Below are positions 3,429 through 21,860 of a DNA stretch of 40,277 nucleotides, in pieces (the first letter of the stretch is position 1; every line of letters begins with the position of its first letter). A model generated the notes under the pieces. The model saw nothing but the letters and a program-made list of their open reading frames with translations. It ran no database searches and was not told the origin of the DNA. The DNA is from a virus (Duplodnaviria > Heunggongvirae > Uroviricota > Caudoviricetes), in IMG/VR virus record IMGVR_UViG_2563366843_000005. One strand, 5' to 3'. Made by a program: the position numbers and the translations under genes.

Positions 3429-4210
3429 GCTGCCACCTTCTGCTCAGTGGCTTTCTGTTTCAGGAATCCAAGAGCTTTCACTGCTTCGGCCTGTGTCAGT
3501 TCTGACGATGCGCGAATGTCGCGGCGAAATATCTGGGAACAGAGCGGCAATAAGTCGTCATCCCATGTTTTATCCAGGGCGATCAGCAGAGTGTTAATCT
3601 CCTGCATGGTTTCATCGTTAACCGGAGTGATGTCGCGTTCTGGCTGACGTTCTGCAGTGTATGCAGTATTTTCGACAATGCGCTCGGCTTCATCCTTGTC
3701 ATAGATACCAGCAAATCCGAAGGCCAGACGGGCACACTGAATCATGGCTTTATGCCGTAACATCCGTTTGGGATGCGACTGCCACGGCCCCGTGATTTCT
3801 CTGCCTTCGCGAGTTTTGAATGGTTCGCGGCGGCATTCATCCATCCATTCGGTAACGCAGATCGGATGATTACGGTCCTTGCGGTAAATCCGGCATGTAC
3901 AGGATTCATTGTCCTGCTCAAAGTCCATGCCATCAAACTGCTGGTTTTCATTGATGATGCGGGACCAGCCATCAACGCCCACCACCGGAACGATGCCGTT
4001 CTGCTTATCAGGGAAGGCGTAAATTTCTTTCGTCCACGGATTAAGGCCGTACTGGTTGGCGACGATCAACAATGCGATGAACTGCGCATCGCTGGCATCA
4101 CCTTTAAATGCCGTCTGGCGAAGAGTGGTGATCAGTTCCTGTGGGTCGACAGAATCCATGCCGACACGTTCAGCCAGCTTCCCAGCCAGCGTTGCGAGTG
4201 CGGTACTCAT
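3425..4210 (-). CDS. bet: recombination protein Bet (Red-beta), single-strand annealing protein
   Basis: 261-aa protein matching lambda Beta; 4-nt overlap with exo. Confidence 0.95.
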
Positions 4211-4215
4211 CCGTT

Positions 4216-4512
4216 TTATACCTCTGAATCAATATCAACCTGGTGGTGAGCAATGGTTTCAACCATGTACCGGATGTGTTCTGCCATGCGCTCCTGAAAC
4301 TCAACATCGTCATCAAACGCACGGGTAATGGCTTTTTTGCTGGCCCCGTGGCGTTGCAAATGATCGATGCATAGCGATTCAAACAGGTGCTGGGGCAGGC
4401 CTTTTTCCATGTCGTCTGCCAGTTCTGCCTCTTTCTCTTCACGGGCGATCTGCTGGTAGTGACGCGCCCAGCTCTGAGCCTCAAGACGATCCTGAATGTA
4501 ATAAGCGTTCAT
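4216..4512 (-). CDS. gam: host-nuclease inhibitor Gam (98-aa short form)
   Basis: [21 protein letters not shown]... matches the lambda GamS core; an in-frame stop upstream excludes the longer lambda form. Confidence 0.9.
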
Positions 4513-4641
4513 GGATAAACTCCTGAAATTTTGATGTGCGGATCCAGACAGTGCGTTAACTGCATAGTTGTTTGAATGAACTCGCTTGATTAATCAAAAT
4601 GTTGGATCACACTATGTCTTGCTCAAAATCTGATAAATAAG

Positions 4642-4956
4642 GTGTCTAGAATGCTGATTGATAAGTTAAAGTCTTCTCCGATGTACCCAACCGCAGAAAT
4701 GGGTAAGCAGTCGAAAAAGAATCATTGGTATGTAAGGGAAAAGGGGAGTGATCAACCGCAAGACCAGACCTGGAGAGCTTGGTGGGAATCTCGCTCGCTT
4801 GGCAAAGGCCATATCAATTGGAGATCTACATGCGTAGCAGAAAATGTACTCGATCCATTCAATCCGCCATCTCGGTTTGAGGTTGATTTCAAAGCCCCTG
4901 ATGGGAGTATCTACAACCTTGAATTTGCTTTGGCTCCACACGGCCCAAACAAGTGA
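4642..4956 (+). CDS. hypothetical protein (ATG at 4651), antisense to the pL operon
   Basis: 104-aa hydrophilic, Trp-rich ORF; AAGG about 9 nt upstream of ATG 4651; no recognisable family. Confidence 0.35.
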   Translation: MSRMLIDKLKSSPMYPTAEMGKQSKKNHWYVREKGSDQPQDQTWRAWWESRSLGKGHINWRSTCVAENVLDPFNPPSRFEVDFKAPDGSIYNLEFALAPHGPNK

Positions 4957-4960
4957 GTAG

Positions 4961-5371
4961 TTAGTGGCTCAGACCACCGCCAGTACCATTCAGGTAAACC
5001 TCCACGAGCAAATCTTTTGTGTACGTTCGTTCGATGCCGCGATGCAAGTAAAGCCGACCGCGCAAATTAGCTGATGCCGTCCAGGTACCATCTTTGTGTT
5101 TAACCAGCATACCTGGCCGGACGGCACCGCGATTAACGGTCTGAGTTCCGTAATGTTGATGAACCATAAAAACTCCTGCCCGTAAGCTGGGCTGCTGAAC
5201 ATATAGAGACTTCTGCGCGTATTCAGGCGGTGGATGGCCGCCGGTTGTCATAACTAAGCCGCCTCGTTGAAGCGACTGAGGTATGAAGTGTTGAGTTGAT
5301 TTCAGCTGGTCACACCGACGTTCACGCGTCCGCTTCACCCCTCGCACTCCCCGGAGCCTGCTGAAATTCAA
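4961..5371 (-). CDS. hypothetical protein, first ORF downstream of pL; possible N-like antiterminator
   Basis: GC-rich ORF starting at TTG or an internal GTG/ATG; N-proximal Arg-rich stretch (VKRTRERRCDQLK) resembles arginine-rich motifs of N proteins; no C-terminal similarity to lambda N. Confidence 0.3.
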   Translation of the reverse strand: MNFSRLRGVRGVKRTRERRCDQLKSTQHFIPQSLQRGGLVMTTGGHPPPEYAQKSLYVQQPSLRAGVFMVHQHYGTQTVNRGAVRPGMLVKHKDGTWTASANLRGRLYLHRGIERTYTKDLLVEVYLNGTGGGLSH

Positions 5372-5431
5372 GCTGCGGATCTAAGCGGTCATCGCAACGG
5401 CGAATCAGGTGGTTGCCGTATCGTTGTGTTG

Positions 5432-5487
5432 TTGCGACATGGTGATAATAGCTATTGCTATTAGTGATATCAATACTTATTGCTATT
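5432..5487 (-). promoter_or_regulatory. pL promoter with OL operators (-35 TTGATA at 5468-5473, 17-bp spacer, -10 TATTAT at 5445-5450, minus strand)
   Basis: Sigma-70-like hexamers on the minus strand; three TTGC-core 8-mers at 5432, 5455 and 5480 (about 25-bp spacing) mirror the array at PR. Confidence 0.5.
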
Positions 5488-5612
5488 GATTGATGCATTT
5501 TGATATTAACTGTTTGATAGCAAAAGGAATTAATTTTGTGACTTGCATCGCATAGCGATAACTGAAGCGGGGGTTGTGGTGGTTTTTTGAACGGTGTGTG
5601 ATGAGGGGAGGC

Positions 5613-5640
5613 AAAAGAAAACCCGGCACGACGGCCGGGG
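5613..5640 (-). terminator. rho-independent terminator ending the cI operon
   Basis: GC stem CCCGGC/GCCGGG with 6-nt loop, followed on the minus strand by a T-run (TTTTCTTTT), directly after the stop of the 287-aa gene. Confidence 0.6.
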
Positions 5641-5643
5641 AAA

Positions 5644-6507
5644 TCATTTCGCATCTACAATAAATAACCTGTTTATCTGGCCTTTTTTAACAGTAGCCTT
5701 TGCGGTTATAGTGAATACTGCAGATGGATCACCTTTGGTTGATATATATGCACTAAGAGCTCTAATATACGGGTTATTCTTCTTTCCTGCAGCTGGATCG
5801 CTAATTTCAGCAGTGATTCTCTTTTTTGAGTCATCACCATCTAAAATTATTTTAGCTGTCATATTTTGTGCATCAAATTCTGTAAGAAAAGCACGATACT
5901 CACGAAGACCGAGAACTTCATCATCATCAAGCCTATCAATTTCAGCTTTATCTCTCTCGTTAACTTTTAGAAGGCAGCCGTCAACATTTGTTGCAACACT
6001 TATCTGATCGCAAGTATTACCAATAGGTGATACTGCCTGCCTTACAGAGGGGCGAAGCTCTACAGCCATTCGGTCAATCAAAGAGATCAACTTATCAATG
6101 GTTCCAGCATCCTTGTTTCCTAGTGCCTCTATGGCCTTTTCAAGTGACTGCTGCAAAGCTTTCATTTCATCTTTCTTGTTAGAATTTCTCGCAAAAATAT
6201 ATTGTAGTATTGCGCCAAGTATAGTTGCGGCGATCCCCGAGAACAACTGGTTCTGAGTGGCGAAGTTAAGAACTGCTTCAAGAGTAAAGCAGTTAGCTTT
6301 TGCTTCGCGTGCGTAAACCTTAACTTCCTGATAATTAATGTATTTACTATATTTTTGTGTAACAGAGAAAGAAGCTGCTGTTGAGAGAACTTTAGAAAAA
6401 CCCTTTAGGGATTCTCCTAGGCAGTTCAAATCTATTTCATGATTTAAAGCATCTTTTCCGTCATACCTAAGAGAGATTTTTATATCCTGTAAAGCGTCAC
6501 AATCCAT
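5644..6507 (-). CDS. hypothetical protein in the rexAB-equivalent slot; candidate exclusion or defence protein
   Basis: 287-aa ORF, visibly AT-rich, 66 bp downstream of cI on the same strand, followed by a terminator; one central hydrophobic segment ([18 protein letters not shown]); no recognisable family. Confidence 0.6.
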
Positions 6508-6573
6508 AAATCGCTCTCGTCTAATTCTAATTAAATTTACTATCCCCTAAACGACTCATCAGCACAGTACTGA

Positions 6574-7266
6574 TTATCCATGTTTCCTGTACGTCTGGGG
6601 CATGCTCCCAATAACCTTACCGAAGATGAACACCCGGTTCATCTCGTCTTTCTCGATCGGGTCCCACGGTGAGTAGCTCTTGTTATCAGAGATAACCAGC
6701 AGCTTATCCTTCATCATTTGCAGGCGCTTTACATGGGCGGTGTCGTCGTACAGAAACGCATAGATGCCATCACCGTCGAAAGATTTAACCGTGATATCAA
6801 CGAACAGCAGATCACCTGGTTCGATCGTTCCTGACATGCTGTCACCACGCACGTTAATGATGCGGATATTTTCCGCCTTCCTGCCATCGAACATGTGACG
6901 AGCATCGTCAAACGAGTACTCAACCGAGCGTAGGACTTCTACAAACTCACGGTTGATGACTCCCGGCCCGGCACTCACTTCTATATCAAGAACGTCAATC
7001 TTGAAGTATTTGGAATGGTTGACAGTAGGCTTCCCTGATTGTTGACCGTCATTTCTCATCGGGCCTATGCCTGATGAGAGCCACTCTGTTCGAACACCCA
7101 ATGCATTAGCTATTTCAACAATTTTTGTTGAGCCGCGCGCGTTGCCGCTTGTCAGTCTCCAGATTGTTGGTTGAGCTACGCCAGACGCCTTTGCAAGAGC
7201 GCCTTGAGACATCCCAGATTGTTCCATCGCTAGGTTTAAGCGATCAGCAAGAGTTTCTTTTTTCAT
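6574..7266 (-). CDS. cI: CI-type prophage repressor (HTH plus S24 LexA-like peptidase domain)
   Basis: N-terminal HTH; Ala-Gly cleavage site (VSAGPG); GDSM serine and downstream KRL lysine of S24 peptidases; start set at ATG 7264-7266 (leaderless relative to putative PRM) rather than the upstream ORF start at 7323. Confidence 0.85.
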   Translation of the reverse strand: MKKETLADRLNLAMEQSGMSQGALAKASGVAQPTIWRLTSGNARGSTKIVEIANALGVRTEWLSSGIGPMRNDGQQSGKPTVNHSKYFKIDVLDIEVSAGPGVINREFVEVLRSVEYSFDDARHMFDGRKAENIRIINVRGDSMSGTIEPGDLLFVDITVKSFDGDGIYAFLYDDTAHVKRLQMMKDKLLVISDNKSYSPWDPIEKDEMNRVFIFGKVIGSMPQTYRKHG

Positions 7267-7275
7267 AAGTTTTAA

Positions 7276-7345
7276 TTTATACGCTTGCGTATTGATGGTC
7301 AAAACACGTTTTGCTATTGTCATGGTTAATACGCATTGCTATTAT
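7276..7345. promoter_or_regulatory. OR operator region with divergent PRM (leftward) and PR (rightward; -35 TTGTCA 7317-7322, -10 TATTAT 7340-7345)
   Basis: TTGC-core 8-mers at 7285, 7311 and 7336 at the same spacing as at pL; 14-bp palindromes ATACGCTTGCGTAT (7279-7292) and CAAAACACGTTTTG (7300-7313); PRM-like TTGACC-15-TATAAA on the minus strand ending next to the cI ATG. Confidence 0.55.
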
Positions 7346-7376
7346 TCATTCATTGTAATACCAATAGGAATTGATA

Positions 7377-7604
7377 ATGACAAATCAAACCATTCAACTC
7401 GCAATCAGTATTACAGGTAGTCAAAAACGACTGGCAGATCTATGCGGTGTAGCCCAGCCCACTGTTTGGCGTTGGCTACACGGTGGCGGAATTGATGCCC
7501 GCTATGTAATGAAAATTGTCTCAGCCACTGGTGGAAAGATTAAGCCAGCAGATATTCGTCCCGACCTCGCACCATTGTTTAACGCGAGTAATTCTGCCGC
7601 CTAA
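7377..7604 (+). CDS. cro: Cro-like HTH regulator
   Basis: Small HTH protein (QKRLADLCGVAQPTVWRW) divergent from cI and directly downstream of PR. Confidence 0.7.
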   Translation: MTNQTIQLAISITGSQKRLADLCGVAQPTVWRWLHGGGIDARYVMKIVSATGGKIKPADIRPDLAPLFNASNSAA

Positions 7605-7634
7605 TCTGCGGCGTTAACTGATAAGGCGATGATT

Positions 7635-8174
7635 ATGCAACCACTTACATACCAACAGACTAGCGGATTTAGCCCGACTGCGGTGATAAATCGTTCTCAA
7701 ATAAAACAGGTGCCAGGCCACGAAAAAATTCGTGATGCCGTCCGCGCCTGGTCTGCTGAAGATAATCAGGATGTAGTTGCCGCACTCATTGTGAATGAGT
7801 ATCGAGCACAGGGCGGCGGCACCATCGATTTTCCTGATGATGTCAGTCGTGCACGCCAGAAGCTGTTCCGCTTCCTCGATAACAAATTCGATTCTGAAAA
7901 ATACCGAAATAACGTGCGTGAACTGACCCCGGCAATTCTGGCGGTATTACCGCTGGAATATCGCGGCCACCTGGTTGAGCAGGATAGCTTCATGGCTCGG
8001 CTGGCTGAAATGGAAAAGGAACTCAGTGAGGCAAAGCAGGCGGTCATTCTCAACGCACCACGCCACCAGAAACTGAAGGAGATGAGTGAAGGCATTGTGT
8101 CGATGTTTCGAGTGGACCCGGATCTGGCTGGTCCATTGATGGCGATGGTCACCACCATGCTGGGGGCAATATGA
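7635..8174 (+). CDS. hypothetical early regulatory protein in the cII position
   Basis: 179-aa ORF between cro and O; much larger than lambda CII with no recalled similarity to it. Confidence 0.4.
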   Translation: MQPLTYQQTSGFSPTAVINRSQIKQVPGHEKIRDAVRAWSAEDNQDVVAALIVNEYRAQGGGTIDFPDDVSRARQKLFRFLDNKFDSEKYRNNVRELTPAILAVLPLEYRGHLVEQDSFMARLAEMEKELSEAKQAVILNAPRHQKLKEMSEGIVSMFRVDPDLAGPLMAMVTTMLGAI

Positions 8175-8260
8175 CAGGTTCAAAAATGGCGAAAGTCGGT
8201 CTGCGGGAACAGAACCGACTTTCAGGTGCAAATCGTAACACACTCATTGCGGGAGGAATT

Positions 8261-9190
8261 ATGGCAAACACTGCTGAGATATTCAATTTTCCAGTGCCGG
8301 ATGCGGCACAAAAGGAGCCGCGCGTGGCAGATCTCGATGATGGTTATACGCGCATTGCAAATGAGTTGCTGGAAGCTGTAATGCTGGCCGGATTAACACA
8401 GCACCAGCTTCTGGTCTTCCTGGCTGTCATGCGCAAAACATATGGCTTTAATAAAAAACTGGATTGGGTGAGCAACGAGCAACTTTCCGAGTTGACCGGG
8501 ATATTGCCGCACAAATGTTCTGCTGCAAAAAGTGTTCTGGTAAAGCGTGGGATTCTTATTCAGAGCGGGCGGAATACCGGCATTAATAATGTGGTCAGTG
8601 AATGGTCAACATTACCCGAATCAGGTAAGAAAAATAAAGTTTACCTGAAAGAGGTAAATTTACCTGAATCAGGTAAAAAAAGTTTACCCAAATCAGGTAA
8701 AGACGTTTACCCGAATCAGGTAAACACAAAAGACAAACTAACAAAAGACAATATAAAACCTTTTTCGTCCGAGAATTCTGGCGAATCCTCTGACCAGCCA
8801 GAAAACGACCTTCCTGTGGAGAAACCAGATGCTGCAATTCAGAGCGGCAGCAGGTGGGGGACAGCAGAAGACCTGACCGCCGCAGAGTGGATGTTTGACA
8901 TGGTGAAGACCATCGCGCCATCAGCCAGAAAACCGAATTTTGCAGGGTGGGCTAACGATATCCGCCTGATGCGTGAACGTGACGGACGTAACCACCGCGA
9001 CATGTGCGTGCTGTTCCGCTGGGCATGCCAGGACAACTTCTGGTCCGGTAACGTGCTAAGTCCGGCCAAACTCCGCGACAAGTGGACCCAACTCGAAATC
9101 AACCGTAACAAGCAACAGGCAGGCGTGACAGCTAGCAAACCAAAACTCGACCTGACAAACACAGACTGGATTTACGGGGTGGATCTATGA
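8261..9190 (+). CDS. O: replication initiator protein O
   Basis: N-terminus aligns with lambda O (VADLDDGY..., LRKTYG...); ori iterons inside the gene; start set at ATG 8261 after GGAGG. Confidence 0.85.
   Translation: MANTAEIFNFPVPDAAQKEPRVADLDDGYTRIANELLEAVMLAGLTQHQLLVFLAVMRKTYGFNKKLDWVSNEQLSELTGILPHKCSAAKSVLVKRGILIQSGRNTGINNVVSEWSTLPESGKKNKVYLKEVNLPESGKKSLPKSGKDVYPNQVNTKDKLTKDNIKPFSSENSGESSDQPENDLPVEKPDAAIQSGSRWGTAEDLTAAEWMFDMVKTIAPSARKPNFAGWANDIRLMRERDGRNHRDMCVLFRWACQDNFWSGNVLSPAKLRDKWTQLEINRNKQQAGVTASKPKLDLTNTDWIYGVDL
8611..8766. repeat. origin of replication: four direct iterons (TACC[C/T][G/A]AATCAGGTAA) plus a degenerate copy, followed by an AT-rich segment
   Basis: Iterons at 8613, 8661, 8685 and 8708, degenerate copy near 8641; AT-rich 8725-8766; lies inside O as in ori-lambda. 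Confidence 0.8.
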
Positions 9191-9888
9191 AAAACATCGC
9201 CGCACAGATGACTAACTTTGACCGTGAGCAGATGCGTCGGATCGCCAACAACATGCCGGAACAGTACGACGAAAAGCCTCAGGTACAGCAGGTAGCGCAG
9301 ATCATCAATGGTGTGTTCAGCCAGTTACTGGCAACTTTCCCGGCGAGCCTGGCTAACCGTGACCAGAATGAACTGAACGAAATCCGCCGCCAGTGGGTTC
9401 TGGCTTTCCGGGAAAACGGGATCACCACAATGGAACAGGTTAACGCTGGAATGCGCGTAGCCCGTCGGCAGAATCGACCATTTCTGCCATCACCCGGGCA
9501 GTTTGTTGCATGGTGCCGGGAAGAAGCATCCGTTATCGCCGGACTGCCAAACGTCAGCGAGCTGGTTGATATGGTTTACGAGTATTGCCGGAAGCGAGGC
9601 CTGTATCCGGATGCGGAGTCTTATCCGTGGAAATCAAACGCGCACTACTGGCTGGTTACCAACCTGTATCAGAACATGCGGGCCAATGCGCTTACTGATG
9701 CGGAATTACGCCGTAAGGCCGCAGATGAGCTTGTCCATATGACTGCGAGAATTAACCGTGGTGAGGCGATCCCTGAACCAGTAAAACAACTTCCTGTTAT
9801 GGGCGGTAGACCTCTAAATCGTGCACAGGCTCTGGCGAAGATCGCAGAAATTAAAGCTAAGTTCGGACTGAAAGGAGCAAGTGTATGA
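9187..9888 (+). CDS. P: replication protein P (DnaB helicase loader)
   Basis: 233 aa, matches lambda P over its full length. Confidence 0.95.
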   Translation: MKNIAAQMTNFDREQMRRIANNMPEQYDEKPQVQQVAQIINGVFSQLLATFPASLANRDQNELNEIRRQWVLAFRENGITTMEQVNAGMRVARRQNRPFLPSPGQFVAWCREEASVIAGLPNVSELVDMVYEYCRKRGLYPDAESYPWKSNAHYWLVTNLYQNMRANALTDAELRRKAADELVHMTARINRGEAIPEPVKQLPVMGGRPLNRAQALAKIAEIKAKFGLKGASV

Positions 9889-10187
9889 CGGGCAAAGAGG
9901 CAATTATTCATTACCTGGGGACGCATAAGAGCTTCTGTGCACAGGACGTTGCCGCGGTAACAGGCGCAACCGTAACCAGCATAAATCAGGCTGCGGCTAA
10001 AATGGCGCGGGCAGGAATCCTGGTCGTTGATGGTAAGGTCTGGCGAACGGTGTATTACCGGTTCGCTACCAGAGAAGAACGGGAAGGAAAGGTGAGCACG
10101 AATCTGATTTTTAAGGAGTGTCGCCAGAGTGCCGCGATGAAACGCTTATTGAGGGTATATAAAAGAACATCAATGGGTACACAATGA
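9885..10187 (+). CDS. ren: Ren (Rex exclusion escape) protein
   Basis: MTGKEAIIHYLGTH... matches lambda Ren; C-terminus diverges at the junction with the emrE island. Confidence 0.8.
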   Translation: MTGKEAIIHYLGTHKSFCAQDVAAVTGATVTSINQAAAKMARAGILVVDGKVWRTVYYRFATREEREGKVSTNLIFKECRQSAAMKRLLRVYKRTSMGTQ

Positions 10188-10254
10188 TGAAACAGGTGAG
10201 TTGATTTCAAACTGTAGTACAATTCTCTCCAGTTTGAACAGGAAAGAATATGCT

Positions 10255-10587
10255 ATGAACCCTTATATTTATCTTGGTGGTGCAATACTTGCAGAGGTCA
10301 TTGGTACAACCTTAATGAAGTTTTCAGAAGGTTTTACACGGTTATGGCCATCTGTTGGTACAATTATTTGTTATTGTGCATCATTCTGGTTATTAGCTCA
10401 GACGCTGGCTTATATTCCTACAGGGATTGCTTATGCTATCTGGTCAGGAGTCGGTATTGTCCTGATTAGCTTACTGTCATGGGGATTTTTCGGCCAACGG
10501 CTGGACCTGCCAGCCATTATAGGCATGATGTTGATTTGTGCCGGTGTGTTGGTTATTAATTTATTGTCACGAAGCACACCACATTAA
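10255..10587 (+). CDS. emrE: small multidrug resistance (SMR) efflux transporter EmrE
   Basis: 110 aa from MNPYIYLGGAILAEVIGTTLMKFSEGF..., matching E. coli EmrE (a DLP12 prophage gene in K-12). Confidence 0.9.
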   Translation: MNPYIYLGGAILAEVIGTTLMKFSEGFTRLWPSVGTIICYCASFWLLAQTLAYIPTGIAYAIWSGVGIVLISLLSWGFFGQRLDLPAIIGMMLICAGVLVINLLSRSTPH

Positions 10588-10618
10588 AAATAATTTGTTT
10601 CTAAACGACTAAAATATG

Positions 10619-10650
10619 GAGGCTCTTATATTTATATGAGCCTCGTTTTA
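10619..10650 (+). terminator. putative intrinsic terminator after emrE
   Basis: Stem GAGGCTC/GAGCCTC with AT-rich 12-nt loop followed by a weak T-run. Confidence 0.45.
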
Positions 10651-10843
10651 TGCTTTTTGTTAATGTCTTTATTTTTTTATGTATTCTTTTGTGCTTTCAA
10701 GATTATGGCGTAAGAAAATTGCAATACGATTATTGTTGTATATTCAAGATAATGTGACCTTAATTGTCTTTTTAAATAAAAATTAAACAAAAATTATATC
10801 TCACCACTAAGGTTTATAAAAGCATACGTTAGCAGGTGTCACC

Positions 10844-12370
10844 ATGAAAAAAGCCATAGCATATATGCGATTTTCATCACCAGGTCAGATGTCTGGCGAC
10901 TCATTAAACCGACAGAGAAGACTTATTGCTGAATGGTTAAAGGTAAATAGTGATTATTATCTTGATACCATAACATATGAAGATTTAGGATTAAGTGCAT
11001 TCAAAGGAAAGCATGCACAATCAGGAGCTTTTTCGGAATTTTTAGATGCTATAGAGCATGGTTATATATTGCCAGGAACTACATTGTTAGTTGAAAGTCT
11101 GGACAGACTTTCAAGAGAAAAAGTCGGTGAAGCGATTGAGCGTCTGAAATTGATTTTGAATCACGGTATTGATGTTATAACTCTTTGCGATAATACAGTC
11201 TATAATATTGACTCTTTGAATGATCCATATTCATTAATAAAAGCCATACTTATAGCACAAAGGGCAAATGAAGAAAGCGAGATAAAGTCAAGTCGGGTTA
11301 AATTATCATGGAAGAAAAAACGGCAGGATGCACTGGAGTCAGGCACGATTATGACGGCGTCTTGTCCGAGATGGCTCTCCTTAGATGACAAAAGAACGGC
11401 TTTTGTTCCAGACCCCGACAGGGTGAAAACTATTGAGCTAATTTTTAAACTCAGGATGGAAAGGCGCTCATTGAATGCAATAGCCAAGTATTTAAATGAT
11501 CATGCTGTAAAGAATTTCTCAGGAAAAGAAAGTGCATGGGGACCTTCTGTAATTGAAAAATTATTAGCGAATAAAGCTCTGATAGGTATATGCGTACCTT
11601 CATATCGTGCAAGAGGTAAAGGAATAAGTGAAATCGCTGGCTATTATCCCAGAGTCATATCAGATGATTTGTTTTACGCTGTGCAGGAAATTCGGTTGGC
11701 ACCTTTTGGTATTAGCAATAGTAGCAAAAATCCTATGTTGATAAATCTACTTCGAACAGTTATGAAGTGCGAGGCTTGTGGTAATACCATGATTGTTCAT
11801 GCGGTATCTGGAAGTTTGCATGGCTATTATGTTTGTCCGATGAGAAGACTGCATCGATGTGACAGGCCATCAATAAAGAGAGATTTGGTTGATTATAATA
11901 TCATTAATGAGTTGCTTTTTAATTGTAGTAAAATCCAACCAGTTGAAAACAAGAAAGATGCTAATGAAACTTTAGAGTTGAAAATTATTGAGCTCCAGAT
12001 GAAAATTAATAATTTAATTGCTGCATTATCTGTTGCGCCTGAAGTTACCGCTATAGCAGAAAAAATCAGAGTATTAGATAAGGAATTACGAAGGGCTTCT
12101 GTATCATTAAAAACTTTGAAGAGTAAAGCGGTGAGCTCACTTGGTGATTTTCATGCTATTGACTTAACCAGTAAAAATGGACGAGAGTTATGCCGTACAC
12201 TTGCCTATAAAACATTCGAAAAAATCATAATTAATACGGATAATAAAACCTGTGATATCTATTTTATGAATGGCATTGTTTTTAAACACTATCCTTTAAT
12301 GAAAGTAATATCCGCCCAGCAGGCGATAAGTGCTCTCAAATATATGGTTGATGGTGAGATTTATTTCTAA
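10844..12370 (+). CDS. ybcK: large serine recombinase (resolvase/invertase family), YbcK-like
   Basis: 508 aa, low-GC; N-terminal resolvase-type domain (AYMRFSSPGQ, catalytic Ser context) plus large recombinase domain with Cys-rich zinc-ribbon region. Confidence 0.85.
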   Translation: MKKAIAYMRFSSPGQMSGDSLNRQRRLIAEWLKVNSDYYLDTITYEDLGLSAFKGKHAQSGAFSEFLDAIEHGYILPGTTLLVESLDRLSREKVGEAIERLKLILNHGIDVITLCDNTVYNIDSLNDPYSLIKAILIAQRANEESEIKSSRVKLSWKKKRQDALESGTIMTASCPRWLSLDDKRTAFVPDPDRVKTIELIFKLRMERRSLNAIAKYLNDHAVKNFSGKESAWGPSVIEKLLANKALIGICVPSYRARGKGISEIAGYYPRVISDDLFYAVQEIRLAPFGISNSSKNPMLINLLRTVMKCEACGNTMIVHAVSGSLHGYYVCPMRRLHRCDRPSIKRDLVDYNIINELLFNCSKIQPVENKKDANETLELKIIELQMKINNLIAALSVAPEVTAIAEKIRVLDKELRRASVSLKTLKSKAVSSLGDFHAIDLTSKNGRELCRTLAYKTFEKIIINTDNKTCDIYFMNGIVFKHYPLMKVISAQQAISALKYMVDGEIYF

Positions 12371-12834
12371 ATAATGATCTCGGATTTTAAGTTATGCTAT
12401 GGTGATAAAGTGCAAGACAGAATTAATTATCTTTGACGAAACTTAATGGGTAATTACTTTGTTTGCTCCCACAAGCGAGTTTTGTACGGCTGTATTGGGG
12501 TAGTAAATGAGCTATACAATCTTAATCATTTGTTAGGTGAGAACTCTTGGTCGCAGATTCAAATACTGAAAATACGTGACAAATTATTATGAGCAAAATG
12601 GTGTATGTCACGTATTTTGAATGATAGGTTAAAAAATAACACCGACTTTCGTAGGTATTACTAATAATAAAGCAGAGTTTTTAGATAGTATCAATGTGCT
12701 TTGTGTATATTGTGGCAAATAATTGGGTTGGGGGTACAATTGTGATTGCTTTTGCATAAAAATTGCGCCTTTATGCATAATGAGATAAAGGAATATCAAA
12801 TAAAATAACGATAGGTCATAACAAAGAGGTTTTT

Positions 12835-13386
12835 ATGAAAACACTTATCGTTTCAACTGTATTGGCATTCATAACATTTTCTGCGCAGGCTGCAGCATTT
12901 CAGGTCACTAGTAATGAAATAAAAACAGGAGAGCAACTTACAACGTCTCATGTCTTTTCTGGATTTGGGTGTGAAGGTGGTAATACATCGCCCTCATTAA
13001 CCTGGTCTGGTGTTCCTGAAGGTACCAAAAGCTTTGCCGTAACTGTATATGATCCAGATGCACTTACAGGCAGTGGTTGGTGGCATTGGACTGTTGTTAA
13101 TATTCCAGCAACAATAACATATTTGCCCGTTGATGCAGGGAGACGTGATGGAACAAAACTGCCGACTGGTGCTGTTCAAGGCCGAAATGATTTTGGCTAT
13201 GCTGGGTTTGGTGGCGCATGTCCTCCTAAAGGAGATAAACCACATCATTACCAGTTTAAAGTATGGGCTCTAAAAACTGAAAAGATTCCTGTAGATTCTA
13301 ACTCCAGCGGAGCGTTAGTTGGTTATATGCTTAATGCTAATAAAATCGCAACCGCTGAGATAACACCAGTTTATGAGATAAAGTAG
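12835..13386 (+). CDS. ybcL: periplasmic PEBP/UPF0098-family protein YbcL
   Basis: 183 aa with N-terminal signal peptide (MKTLIVSTVLAFITFSAQA); recalled match to DLP12 YbcL. Confidence 0.85.
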   Translation: MKTLIVSTVLAFITFSAQAAAFQVTSNEIKTGEQLTTSHVFSGFGCEGGNTSPSLTWSGVPEGTKSFAVTVYDPDALTGSGWWHWTVVNIPATITYLPVDAGRRDGTKLPTGAVQGRNDFGYAGFGGACPPKGDKPHHYQFKVWALKTEKIPVDSNSSGALVGYMLNANKIATAEITPVYEIK

Positions 13387-13395
13387 GGTGAGAGT

Positions 13396-14193
13396 ATGCT
13401 GGCAAGAGGTAAGACTAACTTAAAGATCGAAGAAATACGGATGCATAAACATCATGAGATTCATAGGGTTAAGCCTCTTATGCCAGCTTTGTGTCGTATC
13501 CGTCAGGGAAAGAAAGTTATCAATTGGGAGACGCATACTTTAACTGTTGATAATAATCAAATAATATTATTTCCTTGTGGTTATGAATTTTATATTGAGA
13601 ATTATCCTGAAGCAGGGCTTTATCTTGCAGAAATGCTTTACTTACCCATTGATTTAATTGAGAGTTTCCAAAAACTTTATACGGTAACTGATCAAATACG
13701 TAACAAAACAAGTTTCTTTTTACCTCAGAATCCTGAGTTAATATATTGTTGGGAGCAACTAAAAACATCTGTTTCCCGAGGCTTCTCAACTAAAATTCAG
13801 GAGCACTTAGCAATGGGCGTTCTACTTTCGTTAGGAGTGAATCATGTTAATCATTTACTTTTATCATATAGTAAACAATCATTGATAAGTCGTTGTTATA
13901 ACCTGCTGCTATCCGAACCCGGCACAAAATGGACAGCAAACAAGGTTGCTCGATATCTCTACATTTCTGTTTCTACATTACATCGCCGTCTAGCAAGCGA
14001 GGGGGTAAGTTTCCAAAGTATACTGGACGATGTGAGGTTAAATAATGCGTTGTCTGCTATACAAACGACGGTAAAACCTATAAGCGAGATTGCCAGAGAA
14101 AATGGTTATAAGTGTCCTTCTCGTTTTACTGAAAGATTTCATAATCGTTTTAATATAACACCAAGAGAGATAAGAAAAGCTTCCAGAGAGTAA
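13396..14193 (+). CDS. ybcM: AraC-family transcriptional regulator YbcM
   Basis: 265 aa with C-terminal AraC-type HTH; low-GC. Confidence 0.8.
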
Positions 14194-14309
14194 AAGTGTT
14201 TTAAGAAGGAGCAATTCTATCGATTTTGATTTTGGGAAATCAACACGGCATAATTATGTCACCGGAGCCTGAACAACTCCGGTGACTTCTGCGCTAAACG
14301 GGGACGTTT

Positions 14310-14411
14310 ATGCGCACATACAATCCAAACTCTCTTCTCCCTTCACAGATGCAGAAATGCACCTGCAATTCTTTGCATCTAGCGTTTGACCTCTGCGGAG
14401 GTGAAGCGTGA
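14310..14411 (+). CDS. ylcH: small protein YlcH-like (33 aa)
   Basis: Short [36 protein letters not shown] overlapping the ybcN start; below the ORF-track threshold, translated by hand. Confidence 0.35.
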
Positions 14412-14863
14412 ACCTCTCACAAGACGGCATCAAATTACATCGCGGCAACTTCACCGCTATCGGTCGGCAGATCCAGCCTTATCTGGAGGAGGGCAAATGC
14501 TTTCGCATGGTGCTTAAACCGTGGCGTGAGAAACGCAGTCTTTCCCAGAATGCACTCAGCCACATGTGGTACAGCGAAATCAGTGAATACCTCATCAGCA
14601 GGGGTAAAACGTTCGCCACTCCAGCTTGGGTAAAAGATGCTCTCAAACACACATATCTCGGTTATGAAACCAAAGACCTGGTTGATGTCGTAACCGGTGA
14701 TATCACCACTATCCAGTCGTTACGCCATACCTCCGATCTTGATACCGGAGAGATGTATGTCTTCCTGTGTAAGGTTGAAGCCTGGGCGGTGAATATTGGC
14801 TGCCACCTGACTATTCCGCAGAGCTGCGAGTTCCAGCTGCTCCGCGACAAGCAGGAGGCGTAA
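14408..14863 (+). CDS. ybcN: YbcN-like protein (DLP12 nin-region protein)
   Basis: 151 aa, GTG start preceded by GGAGG; recalled match to E. coli YbcN. Confidence 0.8.
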
Positions 14864-15033
14864 TGGCTACACCGCTTATTCGTGTCATGAACGGACACAT
14901 CTACAGAGTATCAAATCGTCGTAAGCGTAAGCCTGAGCTGAAGCCATCCGAAATACCAACACTGCTCGGATATACCGCTAGCCTGGTTGATAAAAAATGG
15001 TTGCGACTGGCAGCAAGGAGGAATCATGGCTGA
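14863..15033 (+). CDS. ninE: NinE protein
   Basis: 56-aa ORF ([56 protein letters not shown]) translated by hand; TAATG overlap with ybcN. Confidence 0.75.
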   Translation: MATPLIRVMNGHIYRVSNRRKRKPELKPSEIPTLLGYTASLVDKKWLRLAARRNHG

Positions 15034-15316
15034 TTTGAGAAAAGCAGCGCGTGGTCGGGAATGCCAGGTAAGAATCCCTGGCGTATGTAATGGCAATTCT
15101 GAAACGTCTGTACTGGCACATATCCGGCTGGCTGGATTGTGCGGTACCGGTATCAAACCGCCAGACCTGATTGCCACCATTGCATGTTCTGCCTGCCACG
15201 ACGAAATCGACCGCCGCACACATTTTGTCGATGCTGCATATGCAAAAGAATGCGCGCTGGAAGGTATGGCGAGAACACAGGTTATCTGGCTGAAAGAGGG
15301 GGTTATTAAGGCGTGA
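15026..15316 (+). CDS. ybcO: YbcO-like putative nuclease (DUF1364)
   Basis: 96 aa from [23 protein letters not shown]...; Cys-rich; overlaps ninE end and rusA start. Confidence 0.8.
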
Positions 15317-15675
15317 ATACCTACAGTATCACATTACCCTGGCCTCCGAGCAATAATCGCTATTACCGCCATAATCGCGGGCGCACGCACGTCAGTGCAG
15401 AGGGGCAGGCATACCGCGATAACGTCGCCCGAATCATTAAAAACGCAATGCTGGATATCGGCCTGGCTATGCCTGTGAAAATCCGCATTGAGTGCCACAT
15501 GCCGGATCGCCGTAGCCGTGACCTGGATAATCTGCAAAAAGCCGCTTTTGACGCACTCACTAAAGCAGGTTTCTGGCTGGATGATGCTCAGGTCGTTGAT
15601 TACCGCGTTGTGAAGATGCCTGTTACCAAAGGTGGGAGGCTGGAACTGACCATCACCGAAATGGGGAATGAATGA
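15313..15675 (+). CDS. rusA: Holliday junction resolvase RusA
   Basis: 120 aa, matches E. coli RusA. Confidence 0.9.
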
Positions 15676-15812
15676 TGTTTGAGTTTAATATGGCAGAACT
15701 TCTTCGCCACCGCTGGGGGCGTCTGCGCTTATATCGTTTCCCCGGCTCTGTTTTGACCGATTACCGAATACTGAAGAATTACGCCAAAACACTGACAGGA
15801 GCAGGAGTATGA
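15672..15812 (+). CDS. ylcG: small protein YlcG-like (46 aa)
   Basis: ATGA overlap with rusA stop; hand-translated [46 protein letters not shown]. Confidence 0.6.
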
Positions 15813-15897
15813 AGTCAGAGATAACAATCAACTAATACTGTTTTGTTGATTTTTGCTTGTAATTGGCGTTCTGGTCTGAGTTTTGTGGAGTAAGTTG

Positions 15898-16275
15898 ATG
15901 CGTGATATTCAGATGGTTCTTGAGCGTTGGGGAGCGTGGGCGGCTAATAATCATGAAGATGTGACCTGGTCGTCCATTGCCGCCGGTTTTAAGGGATTAA
16001 TTCCTTCAAAAGTAAAATCTCGCCCGCAATGTTGTGACGATGACGCGATGATCATTTGCGGGTGCATGGCCCGTCTGAAAAAGAACAACAGCGATTTGCA
16101 TGATTTATTGGTGGACTATTATGTCGGCGGCATGACTTTTATGGCGCTTGCACGTAAGCATGGGCGATCTGATTGTTGGGTTGGCAGGATGCTCCAGAAA
16201 GCTGAGGGCGTAGTGGAGGGTATGCTGATGGTGTTGGATCTCCGATTGGAGATGGATGCTGATTGTTCGAAATAA
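15898..16275 (+). CDS. quuD: late-gene antiterminator Q (QuuD-like)
   Basis: 125 aa from [22 protein letters not shown]...; Cys cluster ([12 protein letters not shown]); position upstream of the lysis cassette. Confidence 0.8.
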
Positions 16276-16373
16276 TTAAAGGAAAAGTTGCTGTCTGATT
16301 CTCATTAGTCTAACATTTTAAATGTTGGAATCGCAACGTAGTTATTATCATATAACAGCTTGTTTCCTGATTT

Positions 16374-16402
16374 AGCCAGCCTCCCCAAAGGCTGGTTTTT
16401 TT
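16374..16402 (+). terminator. rho-independent terminator downstream of Q (tR'-like)
   Basis: Stem CCAGCC/GGCTGG, loop TCCCCAAA, followed by TTTTTTT; candidate pR' hexamers TTGCTG-17-TAACAT at 16288-16316 are weak. Confidence 0.55.
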
Positions 16403-16430
16403 CTAATAAGTATTATTTCGGGTAGGGATT

Positions 16431-16955
16431 TTATTGTTTAACCCATAATAATTCATTGACATTGAATCCCAACTTTTGAGCGGTTCGCACATAGTCTGCT
16501 TTTACTTTATCTGGAATAGTTGGGGTCCTTGCCAGAATCCATAGGTATTCTCTGTTCGGACCACTGACAAGAGCATACTTATACTCATCATCCAGTTTGA
16601 TTACATTATAGCCACCATAGAAGGGGCCAAAAAACGAAACCTTCAACGCTGCAGTTTTAGTATCTCCAGTAAAGTATGCTTTACCTTCGCTCTCGCTCCA
16701 TTTATTTTTCGTTGGATCGTATCCACGGTTAAGTACACGAATCCCTCCGTCGTTCCGTTTTCCATAGGTAGCGCTGACCTGTTCCAGACCACGTTCGAAC
16801 CGGTTCTCGAGGCGAGCTATTTCATACCATTTTCCGAGGTAGCGGTTGGCGTCAAAATTTGTAATCGGCTGCACACCTTTAGGTGGTGTCGGGGCCTTAC
16901 ATGCTATAAGAGTGAAAGAGAGTGCAATGCCAGTCAACACAGGCCATAACTTCAT
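16431..16955 (-). CDS. outer-membrane lipoprotein, bacterial lipocalin Blc homologue
   Basis: 174 aa with signal peptide and lipobox (LIAC); strong recalled similarity to E. coli Blc (NFDANRYLGKWYEIAR, KAYFTG, LKVSFFGPFYGGYNVI, YLWILARTPT). Confidence 0.85.
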   Translation of the reverse strand: MKLWPVLTGIALSFTLIACKAPTPPKGVQPITNFDANRYLGKWYEIARLENRFERGLEQVSATYGKRNDGGIRVLNRGYDPTKNKWSESEGKAYFTGDTKTAALKVSFFGPFYGGYNVIKLDDEYKYALVSGPNREYLWILARTPTIPDKVKADYVRTAQKLGFNVNELLWVKQ

Positions 16956-17147
16956 AATAAATCCTGTACTTTTGATAGTTGAGAGTAAGTATGAAAGATA
17001 GATGATTACGACCGATCACTTAAAGAACTTTCATACTATATTAGGAATAGTCTATAACAGAAAAATTGTCAGTGATGACGCCAGAAAGGCAATTTATTCC
17101 GTGCACTACACAGTTTATGTGTTAATGAATTAGTCAAGGGGGAGAAT

Positions 17148-18107
17148 ATGATAAAAAAACCTGTGATTGGAATCAGCGGTTGTTTGGCCGGCTCTGCTGT
17201 TCGTTTTGATGGTGGTCACAAAAGAGCTGACTTTTTAATGGACAAATTAGTGGAATGGGTAACATTCAGACCAGTATGTCCGGAAATGGCTATAGGGCTG
17301 CCAGTTCCGCGTCCTGCTCTACGTCTTGTGCGCTCGACGCAAGGAAATATACGGATGTGTTTCAGCCACGACCAGAATGAGGATGTGACAGAGAGAATGA
17401 CAGAGTTTAGTCGTTCTTATATGGACAAATTAAAGGATGTATCGGGGTTTGTGGTTTGTGCTAAATCTCCCAGCTGTGGCATGGAGCGCGTGCGTGTCTA
17501 TGATGAAAATGGTAATCGAGGTCGTAAAGATGGAGTGGGACTATTTACGAGCACTTTGATGGAAAAGTTTTCTTGGCTACCGGTTGAAGAGGATGGGCGA
17601 TTACATGATCCAGTGCTTCGTGAGAATTTTGTTGAAAGAGTTTTTGCTTTGCATGAGCTCAATCACCTTTACAAGGAGAAATTATCAAGAAGAGAGTTAT
17701 TAGCTTTTCATAGTCGTTATAAGCTTCAGTTGTTGGCGCATAGTCAGGCAGGCTATAAAGATATGGGACCATTTGTGGCTGCAATACACGAGTGGGCGGA
17801 CCTTGAATCATACTTTGAGGTGTATCGTGATAAGCTGATGGCGATTCTCAGAAAACCTGCATCACGTAAAAATCACACGAATGTGCTGATGCATATACAG
17901 GGGTATTTTAGTAACTACTTAAGTACACGCCAGCGTAAAGAGTTGAGCGAGGTTATACTTAACTATCGTTCTGGCACATTACCTCTTCTTGCGCCGTTGA
18001 CTCTGCTGAAGCATTATCTGGGTGAGTATCCTAATGATTACTTGCTTACACAGAATTACTTCGATCCCTATCCGGACGAACTGGCTCTAAGACTGATGGT
18101 AAATTAA
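17148..18107 (+). CDS. YbgA-like protein (DUF523 TudS-like domain plus DUF1722)
   Basis: 319 aa; N-terminal Cys-containing motifs (GISGCLAG, VCPE, AKSPSCGMERV) resemble the Fe-S-binding DUF523 family; C-terminal region resembles YbgA. Confidence 0.65.
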   Translation: MIKKPVIGISGCLAGSAVRFDGGHKRADFLMDKLVEWVTFRPVCPEMAIGLPVPRPALRLVRSTQGNIRMCFSHDQNEDVTERMTEFSRSYMDKLKDVSGFVVCAKSPSCGMERVRVYDENGNRGRKDGVGLFTSTLMEKFSWLPVEEDGRLHDPVLRENFVERVFALHELNHLYKEKLSRRELLAFHSRYKLQLLAHSQAGYKDMGPFVAAIHEWADLESYFEVYRDKLMAILRKPASRKNHTNVLMHIQGYFSNYLSTRQRKELSEVILNYRSGTLPLLAPLTLLKHYLGEYPNDYLLTQNYFDPYPDELALRLMVN

Positions 18108-18458
18108 TTGTATGCGATATCATCCAAAAGGATGAGTTCCTGCATGCAGGATATTTACAATCGTAAAAACTACACTATGATACCCAGAGTGTCAGTTTGT
18201 ATAAAAACTCTGTTTACGCTGAAGAAACCATTGAGATGCAACTTAAAGTTGGTAAACATGCCAGTCAAAATATATAATATTATGATTCCACGCAGCTATA
18301 TATAATATAACAGATTGGTTTAATAATTTGTCTTTGTGAGTTAAATACATAATTTTATACTTGTGATGCAATGAGATTTTCCTTATTGTTGAACTGGCGA
18401 ATATTGATTTTCCACCTATACTTACCTGGTGTAACCCCAATGATATCAGGTGGATAAT

Positions 18459-19190
18459 ATGCCATACATATGTTCTATCATTTTGGTGTTGAACTCGTTT
18501 GATGTCCGAATTGGTAAAGAAGATATTTTGTTTAAAAAAGGAAGTGCTGTTCTCATTGATTACAATTTAAAAGATTTTTTTTCATCAAATATAGATCATG
18601 TAATGATCGTAGATGTTGAAGAGAAAACAGTTAATGATTTCTTTAAAAGCAACACACTCTCACCTTTTTCTGTAAGAAGGTTTTATCCGGCATACTTGAT
18701 GGTGGAATGTGAAGATTTTTCATTGTTAAAGAACTTGATTGCATGCTTGAATTGTGATGGCAGAACTGTGGATTTTGTTAGAAATCAAATATCACTTGCA
18801 TGTCTTGCTATCTTATCTTCAGAGAAAATAGTGCAAAGTTTTTTATTTGGATGTCTTAATAGTTTAGGAAGTAAAGTTAAGGCTATTATTCACACGGATA
18901 TATCTGCAGCATGGAGACTTTGTGATATATCTTCAAGACTGTATCTGAGTGAAAGTCTGTTAAAAAGAAAATTAAAGCACGAAGGCTTATCATTTAGTAA
19001 GTTAATTCTTGAAGAGCGAATGGTGATGGCGGAAAGGTTATTAAGCTACAATTTATATTCTGTTGGAAAAGTTGCTGAGATATGCGGTTATGAAAACACG
19101 TCATATTTTGTAAGTGTTTTCAGAAGATATTTTGGTGTTCCTCCCCATCAATATTCATCAAGACTTTTTTTAGAAAAAGACATGATGTAA
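18459..19190 (+). CDS. AraC-family transcriptional regulator, AppY/EnvY-like
   Basis: AT-rich ORF with C-terminal AraC HTH (GYENTSYFVSVFRRYFGVPP); N-terminus aligns with AppY; alternative GTG start at 18450. Confidence 0.75.
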   Translation: MPYICSIILVLNSFDVRIGKEDILFKKGSAVLIDYNLKDFFSSNIDHVMIVDVEEKTVNDFFKSNTLSPFSVRRFYPAYLMVECEDFSLLKNLIACLNCDGRTVDFVRNQISLACLAILSSEKIVQSFLFGCLNSLGSKVKAIIHTDISAAWRLCDISSRLYLSESLLKRKLKHEGLSFSKLILEERMVMAERLLSYNLYSVGKVAEICGYENTSYFVSVFRRYFGVPPHQYSSRLFLEKDMM

Positions 19191-19251
19191 CGTGATGCGT
19201 TTTAATGATTTTGTAATTTTCGTATTTGATAATTGTATGATGCTTTCAGCT

Positions 19252-19283
19252 ACGCCAGAATAATCGCTGGCGTTTTTCTTTTT
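19252..19283 (+). terminator. rho-independent terminator after the AraC-like gene
   Basis: Stem ACGCCAG/CTGGCGT, 8-nt loop, T-run TTTTTCTTTTT. Confidence 0.6.
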
Positions 19284-19378
19284 GAATAGATGTTCAAGCC
19301 TTACGCTAATGTAACTTCTATACCTTTCCTCTTCGTTCCGAACCGTGTACACCATCCGTTATTTGCGGAGGTGAGGCT

Positions 19379-19594
19379 ATGAAATCCATGGATAAGTTAA
19401 CAACGGGCATTGCCTACGGCACCTCCGCAGGCAGTGCTGGCTACTGGTTTTTACAGCTGCTCGATAAAGTCACGCCCTCACAGTGGGCAGCAATAGGTGT
19501 GCTGGGTAGCCTGGTATTTGGCTTGCTGACGTACCTGACAAACCTTTATTTCAAGATTAAAGAAGATAAGCGCAAGGCTGCGAGAGGTGAATAA
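19379..19594 (+). CDS. essD: class II holin / pinholin (S21-type), dual-start motif
   Basis: 71 aa MKSMDK... with two TM segments; GGAGGTGAGG RBS; matches DLP12 EssD and phage 21 S. Confidence 0.9.
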
Positions 19595-20874: not shown

Positions 20875-21164
20875 GGTGTTATTCCCGATGCTTTTTGAAG
20901 TTCGCAGAATCGTATGTGTAGAAAATTAAACAAACCCTAAACAATGAGTTGAAATTCCATATTGTTAATATTTATTAATGTATGTCAGGTGCGATGAATC
21001 GTCATTGTATTCCCGGATTAACTATGTCCACAGCCCTGACGGGGAACTTCTCTGCGGGAGTGTCCGGGAATAATTAAAAACGATGCACACAGGGTTTAGC
21101 GCGTACACGTATTGCATTATGCCAACGCCCCGGTGCTGACACGGAAGAAACCGGACGTTATGAT

Positions 21165-21575: not shown

Positions 21576-21860
21576 TGGTAAAACCTTCCATGTGATACGA
21601 GGGCGCGTAGTTTGCATTATCGTTTTTATCGTTTCAATCTGGTCTGACCTCTTTGTGTTTTGTTGATGATTTATGTCAAATATTAGGAATGTTTTCAATT
21701 AATAGTATTGGTTGTGTAACAAAGTGCGGTCCTGCTGGCATTCTGGAGGGAAATACAACCGACAGATGTATGTAAGGCCAACGTGCTCAAATCTTCATAC
21801 AGAAAGATTTGAAGTAATATTTTAACCGCTAGATGAAGAGCAAGCGCATGGAGCGACAAA

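Follow-up and report, generated by a model that had tools for sequence, protein, structure and literature searches.

The subject of this study is a block of four genes, emrE-ybcK-ybcL-ybcM, that occupies positions 10188 to 14407 on the plus strand of IMGVR_UViG_2563366843_000005, a lambda-like viral sequence of 40,277 nucleotides (nt; hereafter the window). Judged by sequence comparison, this island is an already known DLP12-type accessory cluster of lambda-like Escherichia coli phages, and its cargo was probably assembled piece by piece and reshuffled by general recombination between such phages. The block includes a gene for a large serine recombinase (LSR), ybcK, and a preliminary description had suggested that the recombinase might still invert or excise the island. 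We compared the locus with 5426 complete E. coli genomes, with isolated phages, and with loci of YbcK orthologues viewed with 10-kb flanks.

All four genes lie on the plus strand, and searches against Pfam and NCBIfam agreed with the identities proposed for them between ren and ybcN. emrE (10255-10587) encodes an SMR efflux transporter of 110 amino acids (aa) (Pfam PF00893 Multi_Drug_Res, E = 2e-35) whose score against the NCBIfam EmrE model is 240.6 bits (cut-off, 226); relative to the chromosomal copy of the gene, its ratio of nonsynonymous to synonymous substitution rates (dN/dS) is 0.01. ybcK (10844-12370) encodes an LSR of 508 aa with the Pfam domains Resolvase, Recombinase, and Zn_ribbon_recom. 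The product of ybcL (12835-13386) is a periplasmic PEBP/Raf-kinase-inhibitor-like protein (Pfam PBP, E = 1e-40; NCBIfam equivalog PRK09818, E = 3.5e-119) with an N terminus resembling a signal peptide, and that of ybcM (13396-14193) is an AraC-family regulator (Pfam HTH_18, E = 9.5e-17). The island has a GC content of 0.368 versus 0.504 for the remainder of the window and is the most AT-rich 4.2-kb stretch anywhere in it; GC falls to 0.266 in the emrE-ybcK spacer (10588-10843) and to 0.323 in the ybcK-ybcL spacer (12371-12834), which bears out the description of an AT-rich island with long AT-rich intergenic regions. The first backbone gene past the island is ybcN (14408-14863, plus strand), which occupies the NinB position (NCBIfam PRK09741, E = 3e-83; 22.3 bits against Pfam NinB, slightly under the cut-off of 23.8) and is followed by ninE, ybcO, and rusA. 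Since these genes come directly downstream, the island is placed between ren and the ninB-position gene, and it does not stand in for ninB-ninD as had been thought.

Close copies of the block were readily found. A 5.1-kb query around the island matches a full-length E. coli KOr019 prophage, located at the DLP12 site (tRNA-Arg argU/intD), with 99.6% identity and K-12-type strains with 98.8% identity, and the same gene names are annotated there. In all, 669 of the 5426 genomes cover at least 80% of the query and carry these gene names, and three isolated phages, PhiR68_2, PhiR70_1, and PhiR34_1, of which we found no description in the literature, carry the entire block at 99.0% identity. With copies 99 to 99.6% identical in public records, both of E. 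coli genomes and of these plaque-forming phages, the block is not new. DLP12 of E. coli K-12 (renD-emrE-ybcK-ybcL-ybcM-ylcH-ybcN...) has the same genes in the same order and orientation as the window, and K-12-type strains have IS3 in the ren region. In contrast to the decayed DLP12, the window surrounds the cluster with a complete complement of replication, lysis, head, and tail genes. The gene order is tyrosine integrase, repressor, O, P, Q, lysis, head, and tail genes, ending at J. The notion of an apparently complete lambda-like genome is thus roughly borne out by this run of genes from the integrase through J, although the window itself is truncated at both ends. The isolated phages show that the block does occur in functional lambda-like phages.

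Comparison of relatives showed that the parts of the island occur separately and not as a single unit. The interval between ren and ybcN holds at least six kinds of content, which we grouped into configurations A to E. The full emrE-ybcK-ybcL-ybcM set of the window and DLP12 is configuration C. Configuration A, emrE-ybcL-ybcM without ybcK, lies in the chromosome beside fliE in ~2600 genomes, about half of the E. coli genomes searched, and is ~85 to 90% identical to the window. Configuration B, found in prophages, is ren-emrE-ybcK-ybcN with no other cargo. In configuration D, emrE-ybcK is joined by an alpha/beta hydrolase gene or by a P22AR-C gene and a hypothetical gene; it occurs in prophages and in phages 4A7, Perceval, Lambda_4C10, 1W, 3W, D2, Turner, and PhiR47_2. 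Taken together, emrE-ybcK with other or no cargo is present in hundreds of prophages and nine phage records. In configuration E, seen in other lambdoid phages, the interval from ren to ybcN is filled by unrelated genes, for example those for PD-lambda-1, Rha, and a HEPN protein, and its further occupants include an acyltransferase gene.

The breakpoints between these configurations were located by blastn of seven relatives' loci (L001 to L007) against the window. Configuration A (L001 and L002) aligned to 10178-10595 and 12680-14410, and the two aligned parts are 4 bp apart in the chromosome. This gap indicated that the ybcK-bearing segment, 2084 bp at 10596-12679 on the plus strand, is an indel, missing from the chromosomal emrE-ybcL-ybcM remnant. 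For configurations B and D, the alignment extended to ~12380-12440 and resumed at 14224/14225, which makes the ybcL-ybcM segment a second indel overlapping that of ybcK. From the alignments with L003, L004, L005, and L007, the exchangeable cargo segment runs from 12412 to 14224 on the plus strand and takes in the spacer along with ybcL-ybcM; relatives either lack it altogether or have in its stead the alpha/beta hydrolase gene or the P22AR-C gene and the hypothetical gene. In a phage with neither emrE nor ybcK (L006), homology was lost at 10144 and regained at 14238. The configuration A locus lies between fliE and yedK (L001 6001-8154; L002 6001-9700). Past the ybcN start codon come the 3' end of a Q gene and a gene for an OmpC-like porin, a flank that shares 88% identity with phage 4A7. 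These flanks mark the fliE-linked trio as a remnant of a DLP12/4A7-like prophage that has its ybcN-to-Q interval deleted and no ybcK. It follows that a lambda-like phage without ybcK between emrE and ybcL once existed.

The right boundary is the same in every cargo configuration. All seven aligned configurations, the island-less L006 included, converge on a promoter-like site, TTGATT-17-CATAAT, identified by a consensus scan at 14226-14254 on the plus strand, and the phage 82 record X92588 annotates promoter signals. Directly past the site on the same strand, at 14258-14286, is a hairpin with a 10-bp stem (GTCACCGGAG-N9-CTCCGGTGAC), which is kept in all configurations and whose RNA fold has a free energy of -18.3 kcal/mol (z = -5.0). 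The promoter-like site and the hairpin mark the fixed right edge of the cargo slot and may form a regulatory element of the ybcN-ninE-ybcO-rusA operon. On the left, the cargo boundaries past ybcK are staggered among the aligned relatives. We also considered YbcK as an integron-like, cassette-capturing enzyme and rejected this idea, given the staggered left boundaries and a right boundary common to a phage lacking ybcK.

These results bear on the proposal that the whole block is one self-contained acquired island excised or inverted by YbcK. Its low GC throughout and the intact recombinase gene inside it would fit, but its parts assort independently: emrE-ybcL-ybcM is found without ybcK, and emrE-ybcK is found with other cargo or none. 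Further, the right junction is common to phages without the island, no repeats were found at 10188 or 14407 or flanking the ybcK segment, and neither inverted nor excised variants appeared in the 5426 genomes. We thus consider the proposal very improbable.

A trace of how cargo was exchanged is visible within ybcK itself. Between the window and L005, there are 0 to 3 differences per 200 bp from 10100 to 12000 (ren to late ybcK) and 19 differences per 200 bp in the last 300 bp of ybcK, directly ahead of differing cargos. The jump in divergence indicates that this recent exchange crossed over within the ybcK reading frame, an outcome expected of homologous recombination between related phages. 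Base-by-base inspection of all junctions revealed only the microhomology AATAAT as shared sequence at the ybcK indel. Identity of 99% with the KOr019 prophage is confined to 7632-19581 of the window, while 1-7600 (early-left) and 19600-40277 (head and tail genes) are 82 to 97% identical or unmatched; the phage overall is thus a mosaic of several relatives.

We propose that the block is a DLP12-type accessory ("moron") cluster in a variable cargo slot that extends from ren to the ybcN operon. It is built from three or more pieces, each with a history of its own, namely, emrE with its probable terminator, a single-gene ylcJ-ybcK cassette, and ybcL-ybcM with a private 268-bp spacer. The content of the slot would be altered by general recombination between phages and not by YbcK: homologous exchange would take place in the conserved flanks, P/ren/emrE/ybcK on the left and the ybcN promoter on the right, and exchange may sometimes be illegitimate. 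If YbcK is active, it would work on sites that did not emerge from the searches made here.

Direct searches for rearrangement by YbcK gave no sign of it. In 10000-14600 and in the whole window, the only direct or inverted repeats were short, chance-level matches and the iterons in the O gene, where a 22-nt repeat (TTACCCGAATCAGGTAAG...) occurs four times at 8612-8728, as expected of a replication origin. No paired sites resembling recombinase attachment (att) sites were found in the island or the window, and no motif was conserved beside orthologues. ybcK is internal to the block and not at one end, as it would be in an integrative island. No inversion was seen: the full module is collinear with the window, on one strand, in at least 669 of its 675 carrier genomes. 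When a synthetic empty site joining emrE to ybcL was used as a query, 2627 contiguous matches were obtained, all of them the old copy with at most 91.6% identity; hence, a recent precise loss of the ybcK segment was not found in any of the 5426 genomes. With the cargo crossover inside ybcK, these data speak against the suggested inversion or excision by the recombinase. Nor does the locus resemble an invertase switch, as YbcK has the LSR architecture at 508 aa and neither flanking inverted repeats nor an alternative orientation was found.

The recombinase gene itself is well preserved. YbcK matches PF00239 (E = 5e-19), PF07508 (E = 2e-14), and PF13408 (E = 8e-8) and thus has the catalytic domain as well as the recombinase and zinc-ribbon/coiled-coil domains of the LSR family. 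Seventeen family members with 41 to 61% identity all retain R9, S11, D87-R88, and R91 as well as the zinc-ribbon residues C309, C312, C331, and C339. A YbcK family profile matched the SPbeta integrase over residues 143 to 513, that is, the recombinase, zinc-ribbon, and coiled-coil parts (E = 3.7e-5). A single-sequence search of the PDB with YbcK returned no solved relative, and the match to the XisF model was weak and partial (47.8, far under the cut-off of 375). Among four nin-region alleles of ybcK, dN/dS is 0.05 to 0.11 with dS up to 0.19, and one cluster at 90% identity holds 6144 YbcK sequences of 508 aa. From these residues and substitution rates, YbcK is predicted to be a catalytically intact LSR and is under purifying selection. 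The preliminary description had named a lack of repeats, together with substitution of the catalytic serine, as evidence that would count against a working module; repeats are indeed lacking, but Ser11 is invariant. That ybcK is a decaying, functionless relic is therefore an extremely unlikely reading. It would account for the missing substrate sites and rearrangements and for a literature that reports a single stress phenotype, sabinene (solvent) tolerance upon over-expression. It is contradicted by the selection on the gene, by a full-length open reading frame (ORF) in ~1400 genomes and the 6144-member cluster, and by catalytic and zinc-binding residues that do not vary across genera.

Full-length relatives of YbcK are confined to Enterobacterales, and in the phage collection, the family is carried only by E. 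coli lambdoid phages. Each of these relatives stands as a single gene in an accessory region of a phage or plasmid. In the nin region of lambda-like prophages, the order is O-P-...-C5 methylase-recombinase-DinI-...-NinG-Q in Atlantibacter RC6 and cI-O-P-x-recombinase (inverted)-...-GGDEF-Q-lysis in "Ca. Pantoea alvi." At the tail-fibre ends of prophages, the gene lies beside cargo such as an autotransporter gene (Yersinia) or umuDC-like genes (Ewingella), and a copy in Atlantibacter is tail to tail with the transfer-messenger RNA (tmRNA) gene at a distance of 540 bp; the interval contains no tyrosine integrase gene. In Erwinia and in one Ewingella locus (L023), the recombinase gene is the last one ahead of host DNA, and on large Pantoea and Duffyella plasmids, it lies between unrelated metabolic genes.

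How much DNA accompanies the gene could be read from copies in different contexts. Two Atlantibacter copies, one at the tail-fibre end beside the tmRNA gene (L011 7933-9530) and the other in the nin region (L020 9933-11530), are 76% identical at the nucleotide level, and the homology spans exactly from -68 bp to the stop codon. Three Pantoea copies share ~260 bp upstream and at most 50 bp downstream of the gene. In two Ewingella prophages, a 3.9-kb block of umuD/umuC-like genes plus the recombinase gene (L022 8064-11935; L023 8063-11934) is 93% identical, versus 63 to 67% for their tail genes, which indicates that recombinase and cargo were exchanged together and recently. No palindrome or att-like site was conserved beside ten orthologue or allele loci, and among the flanks of 23 family members, no motif was general; a leader is common to close relatives only. 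The Duffyella plasmid copy did not yield a clean empty site.

Such lone genes raise the question of whether the ~2-kb ylcJ-ybcK segment is an autonomous, single-gene element that uses the recombinase as its own transposase or integrase. The window and the chromosomal remnant form a filled and an empty site with a sharp left edge; relatives stand alone in settings as unrelated as the nin region (three genera), tail-fibre ends, and plasmids; homology between contexts is limited to a stretch that starts ~70 to 260 bp ahead of the gene and ends with its stop codon, plus at most 50 bp downstream; and the gene is under the strong purifying selection that an active element would need. Against this stands the distribution in E. 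coli, where ybcK is near full length in 1427 of the 5426 genomes (about a quarter) at 1 to 2 copies each, adjoins ylcJ in every record among the matches listed, and lies downstream of emrE at every inspected locus; a second insertion site was not seen in these genomes. In addition, searches for terminal inverted repeats and conserved end motifs were negative, E. coli offers no recent empty site, a clean one was not found for the plasmid copy, and the "insert" defined by the remnant contains 268 bp that other ybcK-bearing configurations lack. We regard such an element as unlikely.

We give a small chance to YbcK being a working phage integrase, with att sites outside the island, that serves either as a second route or, where its gene is terminal, as the integrase proper. 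The complete serine-integrase architecture with its match to SprA of SPbeta, the Atlantibacter gene facing the tmRNA gene, and the terminal genes of Erwinia and Ewingella L023 all point in that direction. On the other hand, E. coli carrier phages have a tyrosine integrase and an excisionase at the canonical place, and the closest prophage to the window sits at the tRNA site of the tyrosine integrase. Moreover, the tail-fibre end is also an accessory region, where the gene lies beside cargo, and no candidate attP is conserved beside the gene. Since phage 4A7 carries the integrase and excisionase pair besides ybcK, YbcK is an accessory, second recombinase in E. coli phages.

The spacer downstream of ybcK deserves separate attention. 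A private segment of 268 bp (12412-12679, plus strand) is present only in the full emrE-ybcK-ybcL-ybcM configuration; it occurs once in each of 675 genomes and with at least 99% identity in 665 of them. We rejected it as degraded cargo of other configurations, as it has no blastn or tblastx similarity to them, and as a mobile site, as it is found at a single copy per genome and in configuration C only. Within the spacer is a perfect 13-nt inverted repeat, AAAATACGTGACA-N24-TGTCACGTATTTT (12569-12618). In 300 dinucleotide shuffles of the island, arms of this length arose only twice, and the corresponding RNA hairpin has a free energy of -18.7 kcal/mol (z = -3.7). The palindrome is likewise restricted to configuration C, and no partner for it was found in the island or the window, nor any counterpart beside orthologues. 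It may serve to bind a protein or function at the RNA level; a role as a recombinase site would be speculation. A third copy of TTGTCACG, in the 3' end of emrE, was considered as a half-site and dropped, since it belongs to the coding region and we estimate ~0.1 chance matches to an 8-mer per island.

Several observations weigh against general recombination as the full account of this locus. The non-random, 50-bp palindrome 3' of ybcK is not accounted for by it and comes close in length to the att sites of serine integrases, which in the LSR family measure ~40 to 50 bp and have a crossover core of 2 bp. Relative to the chromosomal copy, the ybcK indel has a sharp left edge, 8 bp past the emrE stop codon. 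LSRs leave a footprint of only 2 bp, so the missing long repeats are weak evidence. The sole pair of filled and empty sites has flanks diverged by ~10%, which blurs the junction, and assembled genomes reveal fixed rearrangements only and not low-frequency events. Finally, strong purifying selection implies that YbcK must do something, which may be a site-specific role. With these points taken into account, we still infer that reshuffling of known cargo by general recombination between lambda-like phages is the probable origin of the island.

Comparison with known systems led to the same picture of the island. Lambdoid moron hotspots, such as the ren-to-ninB interval and the lambda b region, resemble it in having variable, low-GC content between conserved backbone genes, and the island shares with them an atypical composition, a probable terminator hairpin of its own downstream of emrE, and, on the right, a promoter-like backbone site that stays in place whatever the cargo. 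Unlike the usual moron, its cargo includes an LSR under strong purifying selection. YbcK has the domain order (catalytic, recombinase, zinc ribbon plus coiled coil) and the conserved Ser/Arg residues of SPbeta SprA/YokA, phiC31, Bxb1, and XisF, but its sequence similarity to these integrases and excisases is very low, its gene is internal to a phage with a tyrosine integrase, and neither att sites nor a directionality factor were identified. Tn4451 (TnpX), Tn5397 (TndX), and IS607 exemplify a recombinase gene that travels with hardly any flanking DNA and a footprint of just 2 bp. In compactness the YbcK cassette is similar, but in E. coli it lacks the multi-site, multi-copy distribution of such serine-recombinase transposons and insertion sequences, and it is not known to have a circular form or end motifs. 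YbcK, with its large C-terminal architecture, also differs from the IS607 enzymes, which are small and bind DNA through an N-terminal domain. Gin, Cin, Pin, and Hin are ~190 aa in size, carry a helix-turn-helix at the C terminus, and have as substrates the inverted repeats on either side of a switchable segment; the likeness to YbcK lies in their being phage-borne serine recombinases and in some YbcK relatives adjoining tail-fibre genes.

The remaining features of the island are small. Its left end is the ren-emrE spacer (10188-10254, plus strand; the ren stop is at 10187), in which a small inverted repeat at 10206-10238 has an RNA fold not above chance (z = -0.67). The probable intrinsic terminator after emrE (10619-10658, plus strand) consists of a hairpin and a U-rich tract; the hairpin has a free energy of -14 kcal/mol (z = -3.5), and none of 200 shuffles was equally stable. 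It overlaps the small-ORF region of ylcJ (10636-10786, plus strand), which is frameshifted in a T run in the window, leaving an open part of 25 codons (10636-10713). At the matching position of KOr019, the PGAP annotation also reads "ylcJ, frameshifted," and in L004, the gene is annotated in a 49-aa form. At the other end, a 33-codon ORF (14310-14411, plus strand) that overlaps the start of ybcN belongs to the phage backbone and is annotated as a hypothetical protein in KOr019, in L003 to L007, and in phage 82 (orf33). Promoter-like sites numbered 18 versus 15.8 expected (standard deviation, 3.6), which is not above chance, so promoters are not demonstrated by this count. None of six proteins matched a PADLOC defence model at E <= 0.01, and an Rfam search of the region returned no match.

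Elsewhere in the window, a lambda-type tyrosine integrase gene is located at 1-1143 on the minus strand. A gene at 5644-6507 (minus strand, GC ~0.40) encodes a 287-aa protein with DUF7946 and DUF7947 domains; it adjoins the cI-like repressor gene (6574-7323) at the position of lambda rexAB, and its product may be an exclusion or defence factor. A second low-GC cargo cluster (16431-19190; GC, 0.31 to 0.39) lies between Q and the lysis genes and contains genes for a lipocalin (minus strand), a 2-thiouracil desulfurase/DUF1722 protein of the YbgA family, and a second AraC-type regulator (18450-19190). Past the lysis genes, a further low-GC patch carries a DUF1398 gene (21165-21698, minus strand). 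In the virion-derived sequence of phage 4A7 (L098), the b region (20875-27584) holds an insertion sequence and the sitABCD iron/manganese transporter operon, and an icd fragment adjoins the integrase gene.

Taken together, the island illustrates how the ren-to-ninB slot of lambda-like phages gathers and exchanges cargo. No unusual biology has emerged from it yet, and the interest rests on the selected, intact recombinase, not on the island. We tentatively raise a further idea, which we hold to be unlikely, that YbcK-type enzymes form a class of compact, ~2-kb single-gene LSR cassettes (leader, ORF, and short trailer) that insert themselves or are maintained in accessory slots of Enterobacterales temperate phages and plasmids, perhaps adding a second site-specific recombination function, with the 50-bp palindrome as a candidate site. 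The gene ybcK is also present in K-12; finding the sites of its product would settle a long-standing "y-gene" question and could supply a new serine recombinase for the genome-engineering toolbox.

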